A stretch of 63,205 nt of DNA, the filler included, from Dimargaris cristalligena (Eukaryota): assembly GCA_003614675.1 (NCBI GenBank). It is 6 parts of 6 records of this genome, joined end to end, with 100 filler letters (N's around TTAATTAATTAA, not from the genome) between each part and the next. Parts side by side here need not be neighbours in the genome. Positions count along the whole stretch, not along the records: positions 1 to 10,472 come from ML003177.1; 5 more parts are not named here. One strand, written 5' to 3'. This document shows positions 1 through 52,769 of the stretch, in pieces. Numbering within the stretch: the stretch's first letter is position 1; each line of letters begins with the position of its first letter. The notes under the pieces are model-generated. The model saw only the letters and a program-made list of their open reading frames with translations, was not told where the DNA came from and did not search any database. A program made the translations under genes and the position numbers.

Positions 1-3000
1 GGCCGGCCTCTTCAAAATGTGACCAACTCAGTGGTGGATGACCAGCTTCAATTGGTGCCGGTGGGTGTTCCTGGTGAGTTGCTTATTGGGGGGATTGGTC
101 TTGCCCGCGGTTACCAAAACCTACCCGAACTAACGCGAGCTAAATTCATCGATAATCCCCATGGCCCCGGTCAAGTCTACCGGACTGGTGACCGTGTTCG
201 GTGGCTCCCCGAGGGCACAATCGAATTCCTGGGCCGTATTGACAACCAAGTTAAACTACGTGGGTTTCGCATTGAGCTCGAGGAAATTGAGCAGGTGGCA
301 GGGTGCTTCACCGGATTGAGTAATTGTGCAGCCAAAATAATCCAGAATACCTTGGTTCTGTATACCAGCCCTACTTCTTTAGATCAGGAATCTCTTAAGA
401 ACTTCTTATCCAGCCGCCTGTCTAAGCAAATGGTCCCTCAAATAATTGTCCCAGTGACTGAATTTAAGTTAACTGCTAATGGCAAGTTAGACCGCGATTC
501 TCTCCCGCCAATCGACCATCTTTTAAAGCAACACTCCACGACAGATTTTGAGGAACATCCATTATCAGGTATTGAGAGTAGCCTTCGACAGGTCTGGGCC
601 CAAGTCTTACAGAAGGACCCAAGTCAAATAACAGCTACAGACCATTTCTTTAAAATCGGTGGTGATTCAATCTCGGCTATTCTACTTGTGTCCAAGTTCC
701 AACAGCTGGGATACCAATTTATGGTCCCCTTGGTCTATCAGTACCCCAAACTAGAACAACAGGCCCAGTACCTTCAATATGAAACTAGCACAATAGCTGA
801 TATAGGCTTAGCCTACCAGGTCCAAGCCAAAGGAGATGTACCCCTCACACCCATTCAGCATTGGTTTTCCAAACTTCCATTTAAAAATCCTAGCCATTTT
901 AACCAATCCTTTTCTTTCAAGGTTGACCTCCATTTCCCACTATCCCATCCTACTCTTACCGATGCTATTGTTTCCTTACTTAACCATCATGATATTCTGC
1001 GAGCAAGATTCCAACTCGGTGATAATGGGCAGAGTTGGATTCAGTTGATCCCTACGGAGGTGGCCACAAACACCGATTTTCTGGTATTGGAGAAGACTGT
1101 GGACCCTGATGACTATTCAGCCTTTATTCTAGAAGTCCAATCGAGTCTCAATCTAATTACTGGCCCAGTAGTTGCTGCAGCACTTATCCACAACCCAGCT
1201 GACCTACTCAGTACCCAATTCTTCTTCACTATTCACCATATTCTGGTGGACTTAGTTTCCTGGAGGATACTCATTGAGGATTTAAATTCACTATTGCTTA
1301 GCAAACCCCTTCCACCAAAGACAATGTCGTTCCAAACCTGGGCTACCCAATTGGCTGATTACTGCAGTACTCTCTCCGCAGACATTTGGCCTACACAGAT
1401 GGATCCCAACCACCCAATCCCCGATATCTACTCTCTACTACCTCCACCAGAGATCAGTATTGAGGATTATCCTGTAGCCCGCCTCTCTGTGTCTTTGGAT
1501 TTTGATGCTAAGTCTACCAACACTCTTATTTTCCAGCTAGCCCCCCAATGGCGAGTTACCCCTCAAGATTTACTACTGGCCACATTTGCACACGCCTTTT
1601 CTACTACCATTGGAGTCAACCAGATATCATTGTGTATGGAGGGTCATGGTCGGGAACCCTGGGCTGCTGATCAAAATATCACTCGTACTGTAGGTTGGTT
1701 TACCTCCCCCTATCCATTGGTACTCCGAATCCAACCAGGACAGTCGCTCTTGGAGCTTTTGCAACATACAAAAGAGGCCTTACAGACAATTCCAGGCAAA
1801 GGATTCATTTACTCAGTAATCAAATACATGCCAGGTGTCAATACTGATGAGAGGTGTAAACTGATAGCTAAGATACCTGAGAGAATGGATGTTCAATTCA
1901 ATTACTTTGGTCAATTTACCAACTCAGGTACTCCCCAGAGTGGTGATCCACTGTCTATTGAATGGTCTAATTCCTTTGGACTACATGATTTTTCATCTCA
2001 GGACTTTGTCATTTTTGATCTCAACCCCATGCCTGCAATTGTTGATAACTCTCTCCGGTTGATTATGGAGTATAACCCCCGGGTTTACCACCAGGATATT
2101 ATTTCTAGGATTATGGCCAAATGGCACCATAATTTGGCTGAACTTACTAGCCTGGGTGTACAGTCTGAAAATATAATATCTGAGCCTTTGCTTACTAAGT
2201 ATGACTTCCCACACTTATCTCTCTCTGATACTGGGTTCCAGACTGTCTTGGCCCAAGTACACCAAAGAGACATTCCCCTAGCCCAGGTTGAAGATATATT
2301 TCCCTGTATTGCAGTCCAGGGCGGCCTTCTCATGAACTTATCTTCAGACCCATCAATGTACCTTGTCCAAATGGCCATGAAGCTAACTGGCCAACTTGAC
2401 TGTGATCAACTGATTCAGGCCTGGGCTTCTGTAGCCAACCAGCACTCTCCCCTGCGCACAGTATTCATTGAATCACCCAGTACTCTATCCCAGGGGTTCC
2501 TCCAAGTGGTGCTATCCTCTTTACCCACTTCCTGGACTATTGCTGTTCAGCCTCTTGATTCCCTTGAAACATTTTTTATTGAGAATCGACAGCAGGGATT
2601 CACCCTCCAAGAACACATGGTCCGCAATTTTGTGTTCCCCACTGCTGATAGCCAGGTTTATGATATTATTATTACTATCCACCACTCATTAATGGATGGC
2701 TGGTCATTACCCTTGCTCCTCCAGCAGTGGATGGTAGCCTACCACAATCCCAAATTGGCTGTATCCCCACCCCCTACCAGCTTTACAGCAGTTGTTAGAT
2801 ATATATGCCAATCAGATCCCACATTAGCTCAGGCATTTTGGACTGACTATCTACACAATGCTAAAGCTACACCAGCCCCCTTACTGTACCCAGATTATAT
2901 TGGTTCACCAGGTCATGCATCTTATTCAACACTACTCAATATTTCCAAAGCCCAACTACTCCAAACAACTCAAAATCTTGGTATATCAATAGCAACCCTA

Positions 3001-6000
3001 CTCCGGGCTGCTTATGCCTTAGTTTTAGGTCAACTACTTAACCAAGATGATGTGACTTTTGGTGTAATTCTATCAGGTCGAAATTTAAATATCCCTGCTA
3101 TAGGCCAAGTAATTGGGGCATGTACTAATACAGTACCATGCCGGGTTCACCTAAACAGCTCTCCTCTTGAAGTATGGCTACAATCTCTCCATAAGGACCA
3201 AGTAGACATGATTCCTTTTGAACACTCTCAACTTACTGATATTTTCCAGTGGAATAGATTAGGTCAGATTAAACCACTGTTCCATACACTCCTAGGTTTT
3301 GAGAACTTCCCTGACCTAGTTTCAAGCCAATCTAACAAAATTGCTCTATCAGATATTATTATACATGAGTATACCCATTATCCTCTAACTGTCAATTTTG
3401 TGGAACAGCCCTCCTTTATCCAAGTAAAGGTGTCTTACAGTACAGCTGTATACTCAGAGACTACAACAGCCCATCTAGTGGAAATGATCCAGGCAGTTCT
3501 AGAACAAATAGTAGTGTGTGATCCCCAGACCCCAATTAAACAAATCACTCTTAGTAACCCAATAGTGCAGCTATCAACAAATGACCAAATACACAATGTT
3601 TTCAGCCCTTTGTCTGTCCTAGGCTCTCAATCACTAGCTCAGGTTTGGGACAGTATTGTTACCAATTATCAAGACCATTTAGTCTACCAGAGGGATGACT
3701 CAGTACTATCAGTTAGTCAGCTCAATCTTCAGGCTGATTCCCTTATAATATCTACTAGCAATATAGTTACAACCTCTCCTCCAACTATTATGGCCATTGT
3801 GGAAGATATTGCCCAACTATTTAATTATTTAGTAGCAGCTATCAAAATGGATATTTGCCTGGTAGTTCAACCATATACCATAACTATTGATCAAATAGCC
3901 CAATGTTTAAAATTAACCAAGGCCCAAGTACTGTGGCTCCCAGACTCTTTCCCTGATGAGTTCCTAACTTACTTTCCTAAGAATACTAACCTAATCAAGT
4001 TACCAACTTATGGTACTACTGTATCCAGTTCCAATTCTGAGTCTACCCAACAGTATATGGCTAATACTAGTAGCCCTGGTATTAGTTTAAAGTTCATATC
4101 TAACTGGACCCCAACTGGACCTACACTACTTACTATTGACAGTACACAGGTCACCCATGCCATTGCCTTAGCTGAATCATTCTTCAGTAATAGGGATATA
4201 CTTACATATGATCCCTCATTAGATCTTGGGATTCCTGAATTATCATGGCTTACTCTATCATGTCTACTATTTAGTACTACTGTAGTATTACCACAGACTA
4301 TTAACCTAGGCCAATGTCATATTACCCCTGCCCATATACTTACCCAAGAAACCCAAAATCCTGACCAATTAGCACTTGTTAATCTGTCCCATATATTGCC
4401 ATCAAATATCATTCATTTAGATTGGCTATCACTTTCTTGTCTAGTCTATAATGGATCATTATTCCATGGGTACTGCATAGTACCTGGGAGTCAACTAGCT
4501 ACTTTCACTCTACCAATTATGGGTGATTCAGTAAGGGGATTTCTATTAGCAGCTGTGGATCCACAATGCTATCCCTGCCCTCCTGGGGTACTTGGCTACC
4601 TAACATTTTCTAATACTGATAACCTTAGTCATATTCAACAAAATGGAGACCTTGGCCTTGGCTACTATACTCCAGATAACCAAATTCACATTTTGGGCCC
4701 TGAATCCCAGAGGGTGAATCTCCAAGACCAGCAAGTACACCTTGGTATACTGGAGCAAGCTTTCCTTCAGGCTGGGGCTATTTATCCCAGGGCCCTAGTA
4801 TTGCCCAATGGAGAATTAGTAATTGTAGTTGATTCTGCAACTAAGGAGGAATTATCCCAGTTGCAGGCCATAATAGTTCCACCTATTATTCCTCAAGTAC
4901 TTACTCCTGATGTTCTTGTATCTACTAAGCAATTCCCCCATGTGGCTGAATATACTGGTCAGGCTAGGCAAAATATCTACAGCTTTGCCCAGGCATATCT
5001 TACTACACTTATACTACACTCAACTCTATCTCTATCAGAATCTGAGTGGTGGTTAGCTGTAGTTATTAATGAGCTACATTTACTCTACCAACCAATTACC
5101 AGTTCTCCTACTACCACCCCTCTACAGTCTATTGAGAATTTTAACCTAGCCCAATTAGAGTACTTACAACACTATATCTATCAGAAATATTGTATTAGAA
5201 TAGTACTAGGTGATTTAATTACAGTCAACAAACTCCAACCCTTAGCCAACTTTATTTCCAAGCAACTTAGTTATAATCAGATTACAGCTTTCAGTGGCAA
5301 TATCTGTAATATGATACCCAGCCCCCTGGTACTCCCATTTATTCATAGTCAGCCAGTTAATGATTATCAACAAAGGATTTGGTCCCTTAGCCATTTACAC
5401 CACTCTGTAGTAGATTTCTATCACAGCTGTACAATTTCTTTAACATCCACAATTCAGCTACCAACTATTCAAAAAACCATCAATCATATAGTTGCTACTT
5501 ATGAAGCTCTCCGGTGCCAATTTAACTTAACAACTGGTGTATTAACTTGCCACATTCTACCAACTATCCATATTAATGTAAAAGAGTACCAGAGTCCAGA
5601 CTATTATAAGTCAAGTATTAAGAACTTTAGTCCAGAAGATATTTATTTTGACCTTGAAAAGGGTGTGCTTATCCAGGCTAAACTATACCAGTATCCTAAC
5701 CCTTCTACTGGTAGTACTCAATCTCATGTATCCCTCTATATACATGAGATAGCTGGTAATACTGTCTTTTTTGATCAGATTGTTCATGAAATTTACCAAG
5801 ATTTATCTACCATTGAAATAGACTACACCCAAATTATACCTGCCAGATACAGTATTGAATACCAAGATCCCTCAAGTCAGGATCTGGAATACTGGCTATC
5901 ACTAATTAAAGATGCACCTACTAAGCTGGCCTTATACTTAGATAGACCCCACCCTCCAGTACCAACCCTACAATACTCCATGGTCAAATCTAAACTAAGC

Positions 6001-9000
6001 ACATCTTTGGTTACCTCAGTGTCTGGAATGGCCAATCCTGGATCAAACTCACCTGGTGAAAATTGGTTGGCAATATTATCCACCTTTCTTCATCAGATAA
6101 CTGGTCAAGATGAACTCCTTGTGGATTTTAGTGATTCATCTAGCCAATCAAGTACCAATAGGTTTGGGTTAAACATTAATTCCCTCTCAGCTCTACCAGT
6201 CTGGGTAGGGAGTGATTGGCCCACTAGTATCAGCCAATTAGCTAATGAACTACATAATCAGATCACTAAGTCATTGGATCACTATATGCCAAGCACTACT
6301 AGGTTGGCCCAACTCTTAGACTACTCCACAACTGACCAAATATTGGGCCTATCTAGGATCCACTTTTCAATCAACCCCAGCTCACCTAATGATTCCAGGT
6401 CTGGTCCTACTCAATACCACTATCCAACCAAACCCAAAACCATATTTACCTATGACATTGAGCTAATAGTCCAAACTAATTCAATTTCACCATGGTGCCA
6501 ATTGCACTATAACCTGGATGTTTTTGAACAATCAACAGCTGAGCGCCTATTGAAGAATTTTATTCATTATTCAAAATCCTGTATTAGTCCAAATCAGCAG
6601 TGGCCAACTACTTCTACTGTCTGTCCTGAAGAAGCTGAAATTTTACTTGAGGGTTTTGCTTTAGGAAAAGTTAGATCTGGTGAGCCTACAGCTAAGTCAC
6701 CTCAGGGGCCTTTAGAGCTATTCTGCAAGGCTGCTGGGATGTACCCTGATTCTATAGCTGCTGAGTTTGAAGACCAAACCTGGACCTACCAATACTTAAG
6801 TGACAGTGTTTGCAATGTTGCAGCAGGTCTACGGAGGGCATATGTCCAGCCTGGTGATAAGATTGGTGCTATTGTTACCAACCACCCCAATACACTGGTA
6901 GCAATATTGGCAACTTGGTATATTGGTGCTGTATATATACCCATGGATTCCAAGTTACCAAAGAAGCGTCAGCAATATATTTTAGAAGCAGCCTCATGCC
7001 AATGGGTTCTAAATGCCACAACTAAGGTTATCCAGTGGCCAGGTTCCCTGATTCTATCTGAACTATTAGAAGCTACTGAATGCACTAACAGTGGCTATAC
7101 GATCCATCAAAATACACCTGACGACCTTGCCTACATTATCTTTACATCTGGGTCAACTGGGCTTCCCAAGGGTGTTATAATAACACATAACAACATCAAT
7201 CATCACCTCAACAATCATATTTTCTATGATTTTCAACAATCAGGCACCCGAGTTATGGTGGGTGTCTCCCCCAGTTTTGATGTGTTTTTCCTTAATGCAT
7301 TAATGCCTATTTGCCACGGGTCTACTGTGGTCTTTCCTGGGGATAATTTAGTGGACACACTAAGCCAAGTGGATTCATCTTGCTTGGTACCATCAGTTCT
7401 CAGCCGACTTTGCCCCTCAGATTATCCAAACTTAAAAACCTTATGTTTGGCAGGTGAACCCCTCAGCCGTAAATTAGCTGACAGTTGGTCAGCTGTAACC
7501 ACCCTTTGGAATGGGTATGGCCCAACTGAGGCAACAGTTATTAGTCATTTAACCCAAGTAGCTGCTACTGGCTCAATCACCATTGGCTGCCCCATTCCCA
7601 ACTACCAGTGCTATATCCTAAACTCCTATATGCAGCTGGTACCCATTGGGACGGTGGGTGAAATTTACATTGGGGGTGTTGGTGTCAGTCCAGGCTATAT
7701 TAATCGACCTGATCTAAACCTAACCAAATTCCCAAAGAACCCTTTTACAGGTAAGGGCACACTGTATGCCACTGGTGACTTTGGTCGATGGCTACCCAAT
7801 GGTGAAGTAGAATGCTTGGGGCGAATGGATAACCAGGTAAAACTTCGGGGATTCCGGATTGAGCTGGATGAGATAGATTATTACATTTCCCAATTTCCAT
7901 CAATCCAAGCAAATGTCACTGTGGTCAGCAAGAATAATGACGACAAGGTTATAGTATCATATTTTGTACCACAAGCTTATGCAAATCAAACAAAATCAAC
8001 TGACATTGATCAAAGGTGTTACCACAGCAATACTTGCCTCATTTCCGATCTCCGAGGATTCTTAAAAGAACAACTTCCCAACTACAGCATTCCTAGTGTG
8101 TTTATACCACTTTCTGAGCTTCCACTATCAACAAATGGGAAAGTGGATAAGACCGCTCTTCCTTGCCACAAGGCTGCCTTAAAGTCTATGATAAGTCAAC
8201 AAGTGGACCCAGTCTCTGGGGGAATTGTTAGTATAGTAGAATTCGCTGACCAACTAAGAGAGTATAGTCCTACACAGAATACCCTTAATAACATTTGGCA
8301 GCAAACCCTTGGTCTGGATTCCATGATTCCCCTGCATACCAATTTCTTTGACTTAGGAGGCCATTCAATTTTAGCCACTCGGTTGGGCATTCAGGTTCGC
8401 AAGAGTTTTGGAATTGATATTCCAATTAGCTTGGTATTCCGGCAGCCCACTATTTATAGTATGGCTGCTGCAGTGGACCAGTTCAATCAAGCCGCCTCAA
8501 ATATTACAACTAATATATTGTCTATTAACAATGCTGTGGCTCGTACAGTTTCTTCTAAACATCCTCCAGTCCAATCTTCACCGAACCCAAGTACTCAATA
8601 CTCAAATGACCTTAATACGCTAGTTGGGCAACTTCCACCTCCATTGTCCACAATGCAGCTCAACCATAACAATGTACCATTTGTCTTTTCAGAACGAATC
8701 CGGACTGGGGAAGCCCCCATATTCTTCCTAACGGGGGCCACAGGCTTCCTGGGGGCCTTTATCCTAGCCCACCTACTAATACGCTTCCCAACGGCCACTG
8801 TGCTATGCGTAGTCCGTGCCCAATCTCCTGAGCATGCCTTTAATCGAATTAAGTCAAGCAGTATTAATCATTTGCTATGGCAATCCCAGTGGAATATCAT
8901 AGCATCTGAAACCGATTCTCAACTCGGCTGTAAAATTGGCTATGGTAGTAGACAGGTCCGTGTGGTTGTAGGAGACCTATCCCAACCACGTCTGGGAATT

Positions 9001-10116
9001 ACCACGGCTGAATGGCAGTCACTAGCACGGGATGTAGATGCCATTATCCATAATGGGGCATTGGTCCACTGGATGTATCCCTATAGCAAGTTCCGATCCC
9101 CTAATGTATTGGGCACTCTGGCAGCCATTGACCTGGCCACCACTGACTATGTTAAGCCACTACACTTTATCTCATCTCTCTCAGTCTTCAATAGTAGCCA
9201 CTATATCGAATTATCTAGGTCCAAAGATGATGTGGCACTATTTGAGGGCTTGTCTGTGAATTCTCCCTCATCAACATCTACCATACCCAGCGAGACCCAA
9301 TCCAGTATAAACTCTGGTATTCTAGAATCAGATGGCCTAGAAGGTAGTCGGCATGGCCTTCCCAGTGGTTATGATCAGAGTAAGTGGGTAGCTGATAAGC
9401 TTATTCTCGAGGCTCGGGCTCGTGGATATCCCTTCACCATCATTCGACCCGGATTTGTTGTGGGATCAAGCACAACAGGGGTGATCAATACTGACGATTT
9501 TCAGTGGCGCCTTGTTAAGGGATGTATCCAACTGGGAAAGGCGCCTGTCCTAGATAATGAGATTAATATGTGTCCGGTCGATTATATTGCTGAGTTGGTG
9601 GCCGAGGTGGTTGCTCAACCAGAAGCCCTGGACCTGGGAATATTTCATATTGAATCACCCACCCGGTTTAGCTATAGTGATATGTTTGGCCAACTCCGTC
9701 TATATGGATACAAAGTCGATTCGATACCCTACACTCTCTGGTGCAACCATTTAAAGGAGGCCACGGACAAGTCAATAGAGAATGCCCTTTACTCTGTCCT
9801 ACAGTTTGCCCAAGGTGATATGCCCAAGGACACCCGACTCCCTATTCTAGATACCAGCCATACCCAGGCCCTCTGCCAAATTGGGGGTATGAGTTGTCCA
9901 CCCATTTCTAGCTTGATTGGCCTCTATTTAGCGTATATGGTAAAAGTTGGATTTTTAACCCCACCGACCCTAAGTATACTTCCTGATGCTAGGGCAAGCT
10001 GTCAAGAGGTAACCACAGAAACCCCACCCAACTCTCACATGACAGTAACTCGACAGGCATTGCCCCAACTCCCCATGGAAGTGAGTGTGATGATCAACCG
10101 AAATAACCGAATTTAG
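1..10116 (+). CDS. Non-ribosomal peptide synthetase, 5'-partial: A(C-terminal part)-T-E-C-[degenerate A-T-C]-A-T-R (terminal thioester reductase)
   Basis: Intronless 3365-aa ORF that begins mid-A-domain at the contig edge. A motifs GELLIGG, YRTGD, QVKLRGFRIELEEI. T1 FFKIGGDS (~658). E domain HHILVDLVSW (~1234), EGHGRE, RTVGWFT, FNYFGQ. C domain HHSLMDGWS (~2680). Last A: YIIFTSGSTGLPKG (~7141), NGYGPTE. T2 FFDLGGHS (~8344). R domain TGATGFLG (~8731) and YDQSK (~9370). Confidence 0.96.
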   Translation, partial: GRPLQNVTNSVVDDQLQLVPVGVPGELLIGGIGLARGYQNLPELTRAKFIDNPHGPGQVYRTGDRVRWLPEGTIEFLGRIDNQVKLRGFRIELEEIEQVAGCFTGLSNCAAKIIQNTLVLYTSPTSLDQESLKNFLSSRLSKQMVPQIIVPVTEFKLTANGKLDRDSLPPIDHLLKQHSTTDFEEHPLSGIESSLRQVWAQVLQKDPSQITATDHFFKIGGDSISAILLVSKFQQLGYQFMVPLVYQYPKLEQQAQYLQYETSTIADIGLAYQVQAKGDVPLTPIQHWFSKLPFKNPSHFNQSFSFKVDLHFPLSHPTLTDAIVSLLNHHDILRARFQLGDNGQSWIQLIPTEVATNTDFLVLEKTVDPDDYSAFILEVQSSLNLITGPVVAAALIHNPADLLSTQFFFTIHHILVDLVSWRILIEDLNSLLLSKPLPPKTMSFQTWATQLADYCSTLSADIWPTQMDPNHPIPDIYSLLPPPEISIEDYPVARLSVSLDFDAKSTNTLIFQLAPQWRVTPQDLLLATFAHAFSTTIGVNQISLCMEGHGREPWAADQNITRTVGWFTSPYPLVLRIQPGQSLLELLQHTKEALQTIPGKGFIYSVIKYMPGVNTDERCKLIAKIPERMDVQFNYFGQFTNSGTPQSGDPLSIEWSNSFGLHDFSSQDFVIFDLNPMPAIVDNSLRLIMEYNPRVYHQDIISRIMAKWHHNLAELTSLGVQSENIISEPLLTKYDFPHLSLSDTGFQTVLAQVHQRDIPLAQVEDIFPCIAVQGGLLMNLSSDPSMYLVQMAMKLTGQLDCDQLIQAWASVANQHSPLRTVFIESPSTLSQGFLQVVLSSLPTSWTIAVQPLDSLETFFIENRQQGFTLQEHMVRNFVFPTADSQVYDIIITIHHSLMDGWSLPLLLQQWMVAYHNPKLAVSPPPTSFTAVVRYICQSDPTLAQAFWTDYLHNAKATPAPLLYPDYIGSPGHASYSTLLNISKAQLLQTTQNLGISIATLLRAAYALVLGQLLNQDDVTFGVILSGRNLNIPAIGQVIGACTNTVPCRVHLNSSPLEVWLQSLHKDQVDMIPFEHSQLTDIFQWNRLGQIKPLFHTLLGFENFPDLVSSQSNKIALSDIIIHEYTHYPLTVNFVEQPSFIQVKVSYSTAVYSETTTAHLVEMIQAVLEQIVVCDPQTPIKQITLSNPIVQLSTNDQIHNVFSPLSVLGSQSLAQVWDSIVTNYQDHLVYQRDDSVLSVSQLNLQADSLIISTSNIVTTSPPTIMAIVEDIAQLFNYLVAAIKMDICLVVQPYTITIDQIAQCLKLTKAQVLWLPDSFPDEFLTYFPKNTNLIKLPTYGTTVSSSNSESTQQYMANTSSPGISLKFISNWTPTGPTLLTIDSTQVTHAIALAESFFSNRDILTYDPSLDLGIPELSWLTLSCLLFSTTVVLPQTINLGQCHITPAHILTQETQNPDQLALVNLSHILPSNIIHLDWLSLSCLVYNGSLFHGYCIVPGSQLATFTLPIMGDSVRGFLLAAVDPQCYPCPPGVLGYLTFSNTDNLSHIQQNGDLGLGYYTPDNQIHILGPESQRVNLQDQQVHLGILEQAFLQAGAIYPRALVLPNGELVIVVDSATKEELSQLQAIIVPPIIPQVLTPDVLVSTKQFPHVAEYTGQARQNIYSFAQAYLTTLILHSTLSLSESEWWLAVVINELHLLYQPITSSPTTTPLQSIENFNLAQLEYLQHYIYQKYCIRIVLGDLITVNKLQPLANFISKQLSYNQITAFSGNICNMIPSPLVLPFIHSQPVNDYQQRIWSLSHLHHSVVDFYHSCTISLTSTIQLPTIQKTINHIVATYEALRCQFNLTTGVLTCHILPTIHINVKEYQSPDYYKSSIKNFSPEDIYFDLEKGVLIQAKLYQYPNPSTGSTQSHVSLYIHEIAGNTVFFDQIVHEIYQDLSTIEIDYTQIIPARYSIEYQDPSSQDLEYWLSLIKDAPTKLALYLDRPHPPVPTLQYSMVKSKLSTSLVTSVSGMANPGSNSPGENWLAILSTFLHQITGQDELLVDFSDSSSQSSTNRFGLNINSLSALPVWVGSDWPTSISQLANELHNQITKSLDHYMPSTTRLAQLLDYSTTDQILGLSRIHFSINPSSPNDSRSGPTQYHYPTKPKTIFTYDIELIVQTNSISPWCQLHYNLDVFEQSTAERLLKNFIHYSKSCISPNQQWPTTSTVCPEEAEILLEGFALGKVRSGEPTAKSPQGPLELFCKAAGMYPDSIAAEFEDQTWTYQYLSDSVCNVAAGLRRAYVQPGDKIGAIVTNHPNTLVAILATWYIGAVYIPMDSKLPKKRQQYILEAASCQWVLNATTKVIQWPGSLILSELLEATECTNSGYTIHQNTPDDLAYIIFTSGSTGLPKGVIITHNNINHHLNNHIFYDFQQSGTRVMVGVSPSFDVFFLNALMPICHGSTVVFPGDNLVDTLSQVDSSCLVPSVLSRLCPSDYPNLKTLCLAGEPLSRKLADSWSAVTTLWNGYGPTEATVISHLTQVAATGSITIGCPIPNYQCYILNSYMQLVPIGTVGEIYIGGVGVSPGYINRPDLNLTKFPKNPFTGKGTLYATGDFGRWLPNGEVECLGRMDNQVKLRGFRIELDEIDYYISQFPSIQANVTVVSKNNDDKVIVSYFVPQAYANQTKSTDIDQRCYHSNTCLISDLRGFLKEQLPNYSIPSVFIPLSELPLSTNGKVDKTALPCHKAALKSMISQQVDPVSGGIVSIVEFADQLREYSPTQNTLNNIWQQTLGLDSMIPLHTNFFDLGGHSILATRLGIQVRKSFGIDIPISLVFRQPTIYSMAAAVDQFNQAASNITTNILSINNAVARTVSSKHPPVQSSPNPSTQYSNDLNTLVGQLPPPLSTMQLNHNNVPFVFSERIRTGEAPIFFLTGATGFLGAFILAHLLIRFPTATVLCVVRAQSPEHAFNRIKSSSINHLLWQSQWNIIASETDSQLGCKIGYGSRQVRVVVGDLSQPRLGITTAEWQSLARDVDAIIHNGALVHWMYPYSKFRSPNVLGTLAAIDLATTDYVKPLHFISSLSVFNSSHYIELSRSKDDVALFEGLSVNSPSSTSTIPSETQSSINSGILESDGLEGSRHGLPSGYDQSKWVADKLILEARARGYPFTIIRPGFVVGSSTTGVINTDDFQWRLVKGCIQLGKAPVLDNEINMCPVDYIAELVAEVVAQPEALDLGIFHIESPTRFSYSDMFGQLRLYGYKVDSIPYTLWCNHLKEATDKSIENALYSVLQFAQGDMPKDTRLPILDTSHTQALCQIGGMSCPPISSLIGLYLAYMVKVGFLTPPTLSILPDARASCQEVTTETPPNSHMTVTRQALPQLPMEVSVMINRNNRI

Positions 10117-10472: not shown

Positions 10473-10572
10473 NNNNNNNNNNNNNNNNNNNNNNNNNNNN
10501 NNNNNNNNNNNNNNNNTTAATTAATTAANNNNNNNNNNNNNNNNNNNNNNNNNNNNNNNNNNNNNNNNNNNN
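10473..10572. other. Artificial contig spacer (N44-TTAATTAATTAA-N44)
   Basis: 100-nt N run with a central six-frame stop linker, repeated identically five times in the window. Confidence 0.98.
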
Positions 10573-21042: not shown

Positions 21043-21142
21043 NNNNNNNNNNNNNNNNNNNNNNNNNNNNNNNNNNNNNNNNNNNNTTAATTAATTAANN
21101 NNNNNNNNNNNNNNNNNNNNNNNNNNNNNNNNNNNNNNNNNN
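21043..21142. other. Artificial contig spacer
   Basis: N run with TTAATTAATTAA. Confidence 0.98.
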
Positions 21143-31590: not shown

Positions 31591-31690
31591 NNNNNNNNNN
31601 NNNNNNNNNNNNNNNNNNNNNNNNNNNNNNNNNNTTAATTAATTAANNNNNNNNNNNNNNNNNNNNNNNNNNNNNNNNNNNNNNNNNNNN
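31591..31690. other. Artificial contig spacer
   Basis: N run with TTAATTAATTAA. Confidence 0.98.
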
Positions 31691-42131: not shown

Positions 42132-42231
42132 NNNNNNNNNNNNNNNNNNNNNNNNNNNNNNNNNNNNNNNNNNNNTTAATTAATTAANNNNNNNNNNNNN
42201 NNNNNNNNNNNNNNNNNNNNNNNNNNNNNNN
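42132..42231. other. Artificial contig spacer
   Basis: N run with TTAATTAATTAA. Confidence 0.98.
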
Positions 42232-52669: not shown

Positions 52670-52769
52670 NNNNNNNNNNNNNNNNNNNNNNNNNNNNNNN
52701 NNNNNNNNNNNNNTTAATTAATTAANNNNNNNNNNNNNNNNNNNNNNNNNNNNNNNNNNNNNNNNNNNN
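52670..52769. other. Artificial contig spacer
   Basis: N run with TTAATTAATTAA. Confidence 0.98.

Follow-up and report, generated by a model that had tools for sequence, protein, structure and literature searches.

We analysed a stretch of DNA of 63,205 nucleotides (nt), filler included, from the early-diverging fungus Dimargaris cristalligena (assembly GCA_003614675.1), called the window below, whose first 10,472 positions (record ML003177.1) carry a nonribosomal peptide synthetase (NRPS) gene. The last module of this NRPS is very likely a mosaic, in which an NRPS-type core of the adenylation (A) domain is continued, from the A8 motif on, by a diverged duplicate of the species' own Lys2 (alpha-aminoadipate reductase). 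The continuation consists of the A subdomain (Asub), a carrier (T) domain and a thioester reductase (R), and for these three parts a Lys2 origin can be held with yet higher confidence from the sequence comparisons given below. Reductase-terminated NRPSs and domain shuffling are already known; what seems new is a release unit, together with an A subdomain, that can be traced to the host's own Lys2 in such an enzyme.

The gene is a single open frame in frame 1 of the plus strand (1..10116; 3371 codons), the strand to which all coordinates refer, and it is open at the 5′ end, where its own contig cuts it. In the last module, the NRPS-derived A-core (6688..7818) is followed by the A8 motif GRMDNQVKLRGFRIEL, the crossover zone at the hinge of A-core and Asub (7819..7866), and then by the Lys2-derived Asub (7867..8175), the Lys2-derived carrier T3 (8284..8475; Pfam PP-binding at amino acids (aa) 2762-2825) and the Lys2-derived R domain (8725..9957; Pfam NAD_binding_4 at aa 2910-3199). 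The Lys2 equivalog model TIGR03443 matches aa 2587-3325 (nt 7759-9975) only, with positions 678-1362 of its 1390, and gives 642.3 bits, twice what the generic reductase model yields. The A-core lies in a domain recognised by Pfam AMP-binding (aa 2243-2566) and by the amino-acid adenylation model TIGR01733 (337.5 bits, cut-off 317.4). Segments of the open reading frame (ORF) were compared by BLAST with 498 other proteins. Multimodular NRPSs of D. cristalligena share 48-57% identity with the A-core (aa 2230-2607), and the Lys2 of the same species reached 21.9% identity and 72-73 bits, at about rank 454-457 of 489 subjects. For the parts downstream, the identity to Dimargaritales Lys2 is 51% (Asub), 55% (T, with this value for D. 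cristalligena Lys2) and 51-58% (R, with 57.7% for the D. cristalligena Lys2 P0242). On sliding a window of 20 aa along the module and taking the mean identity to six Dimargaris NRPS modules and four Dimargaritales Lys2, we obtained 0.5-0.8 for the NRPS modules and 0.1-0.5 for Lys2 up to about aa 2600, equal values (0.72 and 0.70) for the 20-aa span beginning within the A8 motif, and from aa 2620 onwards 0.1-0.4 for the NRPS modules and 0.4-0.76 for Lys2, linkers excepted. The crossover is thus in or at the A8 motif, at aa 2610-2620, and its position is resolved to about 10 codons because both parents conserve A8. A chance likeness is excluded by E-values of 1e-170 to 1e-250. The protein is nevertheless not a Lys2 orthologue, because its TIGR03443 match is partial and the whole-protein score stays below the cut-off of 1030.1 bits, and because its A-core is of NRPS type, about 22% identical to Lys2; instead of an N-terminal ADA domain and an aminoadipate-type A-core, a full condensation (C) domain precedes this NRPS-type A-core. 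As the A-core is foreign to Lys2, it seems unlikely that this enzyme reduces alpha-aminoadipate in lysine synthesis.

Trees of the two halves place them in different families. In the careful A-core tree, for which 20 long-branched or redundant rows were removed from the 58 of a quick tree to leave 38, the query A-core lies inside the Dimargaritales NRPS A domains (support 100/100) as the sister of P0128 and P0131 (100/98), and the Lys2 A-cores form a separate clade (100/100) with a stem of 2.68 changes per column. The approximately unbiased (AU) test rejects a tree that unites the query with all Lys2 A-cores, with a difference in log-likelihood (dlnL) of 44 and p 5.6e-4. For Asub-T-R, the quick tree of 72 rows and the careful tree of a 39-row subset (653 columns, every group kept) agree with each other. 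In the careful tree P0002, P0003, P0008 and P0009, all D. cristalligena proteins with accessions of one assembly, make one clade with the query (100/100), this clade is sister to the D. cristalligena Lys2 P0242 (100/99), and together they lie inside Dimargaritales Lys2 (100/100), in turn inside the Lys2 of Kickxellomycotina. The six bacterial NRPS R rows are separated from these at 100/100. Also, when the 24 Lys2 rows are forced into an exclusive clade the result is rejected (dlnL 426, p-AU 6e-8), as is an A-core tree forced onto the Asub-T-R topology with the query joined to P0242 (dlnL 345). The A-core and Asub-T-R trees are therefore incongruent and the two halves have different histories. 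A quick tree of Asub only (54 rows, 122 columns) places the five Dimargaris rows within the Lys2 Asub clade with a support of 100 and gathers 13 Dimargaritales NRPS Asubs in a clade of their own with a support of 97, and therefore the graft includes the A subdomain. It may be noted that P0251 was left out of the Asub-only and A-core trees, its A8 motif having been missed by the pattern used. The careful tree, the AU test and the Asub-only tree thus agree in placing Asub-T-R within the Lys2 clade.

Upstream of A8, the segment BLAST shows the protein to be colinear with P0128, P0224, P0131, P0140 and P0149, including a module that has no Pfam match, and by this domain order and the clade of its A-core it belongs to the Dimargaritales NRPS family. 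In these NRPS paralogues the homologous A domain is followed by additional C and A domains, and no reductase domain was seen in these five; the graft therefore shortened a longer ancestral line and added a release step. The phylogeny shows a history in which a single recombination in the D. cristalligena lineage swapped the downstream modules of a longer ancestral NRPS for the Lys2 block, and in which the chimeric gene was then duplicated to at least four copies in one genome. The donor in these trees is the Lys2 lineage of D. cristalligena itself. From the split to the tip, the path in the careful Asub-T-R tree is about 0.74 changes per column for the query as against 0.078 for P0242, and the long stem after the capture fits an adaptation to a peptidyl substrate and a C-domain partner.

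Much of this had been anticipated in an earlier note, made on the sequence alone, which read the last A domain as similar to that of module 1 up to A8 and Lys2-like afterwards, and which, with 7820 as its start coordinate, proposed a recombination at A8 that joined a Lys2 release part to an NRPS. All the strings it quoted are present in frame 1 of the single ORF. When the module-1 tail is aligned with the last module, 101 of 297 columns are identical; by a hand count, 53 of 97 are identical up to ...RIEL(E/D)EI and 48 of 200 thereafter. The Lys2 strings that it had cited agree with the consensus of 47 Lys2 rows, which contains HNGALVHWVYPY, GYGQSKWVaE and NtDDF.WRLvKGC, and its start coordinate falls on the junction to within about 10 codons. 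Recombination at A8 is borne out by the identity switch and the Asub-only tree. Of the checks it had proposed, the Asub-T-R tree puts the block with Lys2 rather than with ordinary NRPS R domains, the tree of the A-core disagrees with it, and a separate intact LYS2 is indeed present in D. cristalligena (P0006), which TIGR03443 matches over its full length with 1672.7 bits, in the range of all 17 reference Lys2 proteins tested (1146.7-1832.8 bits). We differ from the note in two respects: the donor is taken to be the species' own Lys2 lineage rather than a generic fungal Lys2, and the graft is not unique to this gene but is the founder of a family of five paralogues.

The residues expected for catalysis are in place. 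The A10 motif NGKVDK is kept with its lysine K2714 (nt 8140-8142), the carrier motif FFDLGGHSILAT of T3 equals the Lys2 consensus and holds the phosphopantetheine serine S2789 (nt 8365-8367), and the R domain has the motif for reduced nicotinamide adenine dinucleotide phosphate (NADPH), G2912-x-x-G-x-x-G (GATGFLG), the catalytic Y3124 and K3128 (Y-x-x-S-K; GYDQSKW) and the S-S/T residues. The Lys2 signatures HNGALVHWMYPY and NTDDFQWRLVKGC are also retained. A C domain, an A domain and a serine-bearing carrier (GGHS) stand upstream of R in one polypeptide, the generic thioester-reductase model TIGR01746 scores the R domain above its cut-off (300.5 against 213.35 bits), and the best solved structural relative is the MxaA reductase 4u7w. 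With the A10 lysine, the carrier serine, GxxGxxG and the Tyr/Lys pair intact, it is plausible that the chain is released reductively with NADPH, to give an aldehyde or an alcohol. In the mechanism that we propose, the NRPS A-core would bind, select and adenylate an amino acid, the Lys2-type Asub would complete the adenylation and rotate to load the Lys2-type carrier T3, and C3 would move the upstream acyl or peptidyl group onto T3. R would then release the chain with NADPH as an aldehyde, by the same two-electron chemistry that Lys2 performs on aminoadipate, and the aldehyde might be reduced further or cyclised. The dipeptide aldehydes of AusA-type enzymes cyclise to pyrazinones. If Asub, T and R were captured as one block, their co-evolved contacts would have been preserved, and adaptation would have been needed in the contact between carrier and C domain and in the reductase pocket, which would have to take a peptidyl substrate.

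The explanation that survives best beside this one accepts the chimera as real and takes the gene to be decaying or non-colinear, with no peptide aldehyde made and with a T-R part that is inactive or used otherwise, for example on a single amino acid. We consider it unlikely, although it deserves some weight on account of the second module. Between C2 and C3, Pfam and NCBIfam scans gave no family match over about 550 aa. When this region (degenerate A-T module X, 3619..5265) and its five paralogues were compared with an A-T module alignment, hhalign aligned them across 525 columns with a probability of 97.9% and 11% identity. Neither the A3 and A8 core motifs nor the GG(H/D)S carrier motif has been kept in X, and C3 and X are about 33% identical between paralogues, as against 55-60% for the E domain (described below) and C2. 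Yet the frame is open over 10,116 nt. The degenerate module is itself conserved in the five D. cristalligena paralogues, with LAQLE and SE.EWW as common strings, and the catalytic motifs of Asub, T and R, GATGFLG and GYDQSKW included, are intact in all five copies, although these have diverged to about 50% identity, and this argues for purifying selection. The role of module X may be that of a skipped or structural module or of one loaded in trans. Given the state of module 2, the enzyme might make an aldehyde of a di- or tripeptide, or a less regular product.

It may also be asked if the direction was the reverse, with the T-R passing from the NRPS family to D. cristalligena Lys2, or if repeated gene conversion has kept the two alike. 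We find this improbable. The NRPS T-R clade is sister to the Lys2 of D. cristalligena alone, a position that conversion could give, but the two are only 51-58% identical, so that no conversion can be recent. Against a reverse transfer, the Lys2 Asub-T-R rows follow taxonomy for the most part (Kickxellomycotina, Dimargaritales, Mortierellaceae and chytrids) once the nested NRPS rows are set aside, and P0242 has a short branch, as is typical of Lys2, whereas the NRPS copies sit on long ones.

A further doubt concerns the DNA itself, since an NRPS A domain might have been joined to a Lys2-like gene at the conserved A8 by assembly or amplification. The source contig is short (10,472 nt), and a paper on this species remarks that most of its NRPS genes are on short contigs, alone (PMC6784888), a remark with which the lone gene on its 10.5-kb contig is in keeping. 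Five DNA runs from two studies contain nt 7300-8400, and contigs of the runs were compared with nt 6400-9400 to check the junction. A 759-nt contig (7254-8012) bridges it with 0 mismatches in runs X1, X3 and X4, the last from the second study, with similar depth on both sides (about 160-170 in X4), and in X5 a 704-nt contig crosses it. In all four runs the Logan contigs are interrupted at 7135-7283, 7983-8016 and 8260-8289, that is on either side of the bridging contig in the first two cases, and word depth rises there two- to three-fold. The break stretches are words common to paralogous NRPS genes, and such sharing probably explains why the paralogue gene models all start near the same point and also why this gene family is assembled in fragments. 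The assembly contains, on other contigs, three more paralogues in which an A5-A8 stretch of NRPS type likewise leads into an Asub-T-R of Lys2 type, and the four paralogous T-R proteins give 569-640 bits with TIGR03443, their matches starting at profile positions 615-678. Also, an identity of merely 51-58% to the true LYS2 means that the Lys2-like part is a separate locus. With a mismatch-free bridging contig in two studies and the same junction in the paralogues, a chimera of assembly or amplification is therefore very unlikely.

Hardly credible, finally, is an ordinary NRPS terminal reductase that resembles Lys2 through the old common ancestry of thioester reductases and without any graft, for although generic models match it too (TIGR01746 as above, MxcG 426 and AusA 354 bits) and its best solved relative is a bacterial R domain, the block nests in Dimargaritales Lys2 beside the Lys2 of its own species, stands apart from the bacterial NRPS R rows, keeps the Lys2-specific strings and scores twice as high with TIGR03443, the exclusive Lys2 clade being rejected.

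Several points weigh against the graft from Lys2 as we describe it, or against the function proposed for it. The AU p-values are formally weakened because the groups for testing were chosen once a first tree was known. The reference R domains were sampled by their similarity to the query and the trees are without the distant R domains of Dikarya NRPSs; in the search of representatives, the best 150 of 117,479 matches at E<=0.001, among which giant NRPSs with summed Asub-T repeats dominate, added Lys2 rows alone. The crossover is resolved to about 10 codons only. With the A-T of module 2 degenerate, the modules may not work in plain colinear order. No RNA run was found among the five runs that contain nt 7300-8400. 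The gene stands alone on its contig, truncated at the 5′ end and with no cluster context. Moreover, the public gene model drops pieces of the Lys2-derived part. The Asub-T-R residues equal those of the public D. cristalligena protein P0002 at 762 of 762 aligned positions, and the model of P0002 begins at an internal Met and omits 8227-8262 (36 nt), 8569-8658 (90 nt) and 9217-9288 (72 nt), all three in frame, free of stops and bounded by GT..AG. They may be short introns, or else segments that are extra in comparison with Lys2 and were spliced out when the gene was modelled by homology; if they are true introns the protein is 66 aa shorter, and no catalytic motif falls in them. P0003 is without a 57-nt piece that overlaps the third.

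For the NRPS as a whole, the predicted domain order is (A1)-T1-E-C2-[degenerate A-T]-C3-A3-T3-R. The end of the module-1 A domain (A-core tail and Asub) occupies 1..510, with Pfam AMP-binding profile positions 345-383 at aa 1-38, and is colinear with the D. cristalligena NRPS P0128 from aa 568 of the latter at 63% identity. The carrier T1 (583..774; Pfam PP-binding aa 195-258) is followed by a condensation-family domain at 832..2157 (Pfam Condensation aa 278-719), which is probably an epimerase (E), and then by the condensation domains C2 (2290..3555; Pfam Condensation aa 764-1185) and, after module X, C3 (5347..6645; aa 1783-2215). The stop codon is at 10114..10116 and 356 nt of the contig remain, to 10472. 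Three further statements of the earlier note concern this part and they stand to different degrees. That the gene is intronless is unproven in view of the three pieces removed in the public model. That it contains an epimerase is likely, as the domain matches Condensation and the motif HHILVDLVSW, which is typical of E domains, is visible in it; the E-domain model TIGR01720 gives 52.7 bits, under its cut-off of 74.2. A peptide aldehyde or alcohol with a D-residue, which the note deduced as the product, is a possible product that the degenerate A-T of module 2 makes less assured. The window itself consists of six contigs arranged by size, from 10,472 down to 10,436 nt, with a spacer of 44 N, 12 nt and 44 N between each and the next (10473-10572, 21043-21142, 31591-31690, 42132-42231 and 52670-52769), and because of this joining no linkage is shown between genes of separate pieces. 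A reading of the housekeeping genes at 27-61 kb as gene-cluster neighbours was rejected, as they are located on other contigs.

Captures of the same kind appear to have occurred in two other fungal lineages. In the careful Asub-T-R tree, the Mortierellaceae NRPS reductase rows P0243, P0246 and P0248 are sister to the Lys2 of Mortierella alpina (99/96), with P0245 and P0249 joining them in the quick tree, and the T-R of the Calcarisporiella NRPS P0251 is sister to that species' own Lys2 (100/100). The test rejects a tree that unites the T-R of every fungal NRPS row in a single clade (dlnL 377, p 1.6e-6), and therefore the captures in Dimargaris, Mortierellaceae and Calcarisporiella are independent. 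The terminal A-core and Asub of the Mortierella proteins group with Mortierellaceae and Mycoavidus NRPS domains, and high identity to Lys2 (0.7-1.0) sets in only some 120 aa past A8. In 30-aa windows, the T-R of P0243, P0245, P0246, P0248 and P0249 is 0.7-1.0 identical to M. alpina Lys2. In P0251 (Calcarisporiella thermophila), aa ~3600-3720 hold a tandem Asub, first of NRPS type with its own A10 and then the Lys2-type Asub-T-R, which begins just after the position of the Lys2 A8 and is 56% identical over 670 aa. On the NRPS side the joins would thus be at two points, namely the A8 hinge in Dimargaris and after the NRPS's own Asub in Mortierella and Calcarisporiella. Taking these cases together, we think it rather likely that Lys2 has been a recurrent donor, i.e. 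that at least three early-diverging lineages independently captured the carrier-reductase unit of their own Lys2 to end NRPSs. Two side observations may be added. In the Mortierellaceae rows the Lys2 string HNGALVHWVYPY is changed to HNGAaVNGvlPY, nearer to the bacterial NRPS R consensus, so that the substrate pocket may have changed by convergence. The proteins P0285 (2046 aa) and P0333 (1930 aa), one of the two from a eukaryote transcriptome, combine a Lys2-like A-T-R with Pfam PF05222 (alanine dehydrogenase/PNT N-terminal domain) and may be fusions of Lys2 with a saccharopine-dehydrogenase-like enzyme.

For evolution, the case is a clear recruitment from primary to secondary metabolism, in which the donor can be named (the host Lys2) and the cut can be placed at the hinge of A-core and Asub, and the recruitment seems to be repeated in the two other lineages. 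For engineering, it offers a natural, duplicated and conserved hybrid A domain, whose fusion point tolerates a swap between cores that are about 22% identical. If Lys2 is truly a recurrent donor, a housekeeping enzyme would be a standing source of parts for secondary metabolism and both join points would be fusion sites for NRPS engineering that nature has tested. For the biology of the organism, an obligate mycoparasite with 27 NRPS genes and no product known for them, it suggests that reduced peptides (aldehydes, alcohols or cyclised imines) are among the products still to be explored. The earlier literature, in the portions available to us, bases the expansion of NRPSs in D. cristalligena and in early-diverging fungi on trees of A domains alone (PMC6784888, PMC7466969, PMC9866270). 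In the same partial sense, the Mortierella NRPSs are described as thioesterase-terminated with no Lys2-type reductase mentioned (PMC9365243, bioRxiv 10.1101/2020.08.21.262279), and a survey of Mucoromycota notes the overlap of NRPS and LYS2 labels without interpreting it as capture of Lys2 (PMC8070225). No description of a Lys2-derived NRPS reductase was found in the open full texts searched, in such parts as were available, supplements and subscription journals being outside this scope.

Among the closest known systems is Lys2 (TIGR03443; ADA-A-T-R), of which the Asub, T and R of the query are direct descendants with the same carrier serine, NADPH and Tyr/Lys motifs. The query differs from it in being without the N-terminal ADA domain and the aminoadipate A-core, and in having C domains and further modules upstream. 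MxcG (myxochelin), AusA (aureusimine, A-T-C-A-T-R) and MxaA (myxalamid) follow the same C-A-T-R logic, with models that match at 354-426 bits, but the release unit of the query, with its Asub, comes from a primary-metabolism enzyme of the host and so has a descent other than that of the assembly line. Within its own species it belongs to a lineage-specific expansion of 27 NRPS genes, as given in the accessible part of Ahrendt et al. 2018 (PMC6784888). It ends in a Lys2-derived reductase where the colinear paralogues of this expansion continue with C and A domains. Parallels are the Mortierellaceae proteins P0243-P0249 and the Calcarisporiella protein P0251, which like those of Dimargaris are multimodular NRPSs with a terminal T-R placed beside the Lys2 of their own lineage. 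They differ from the Dimargaris proteins at the join: the Asub of Mortierella is still of NRPS type and P0251 has an NRPS Asub followed by a second one of Lys2 type, whereas Dimargaris has a single Asub, of Lys2 type.

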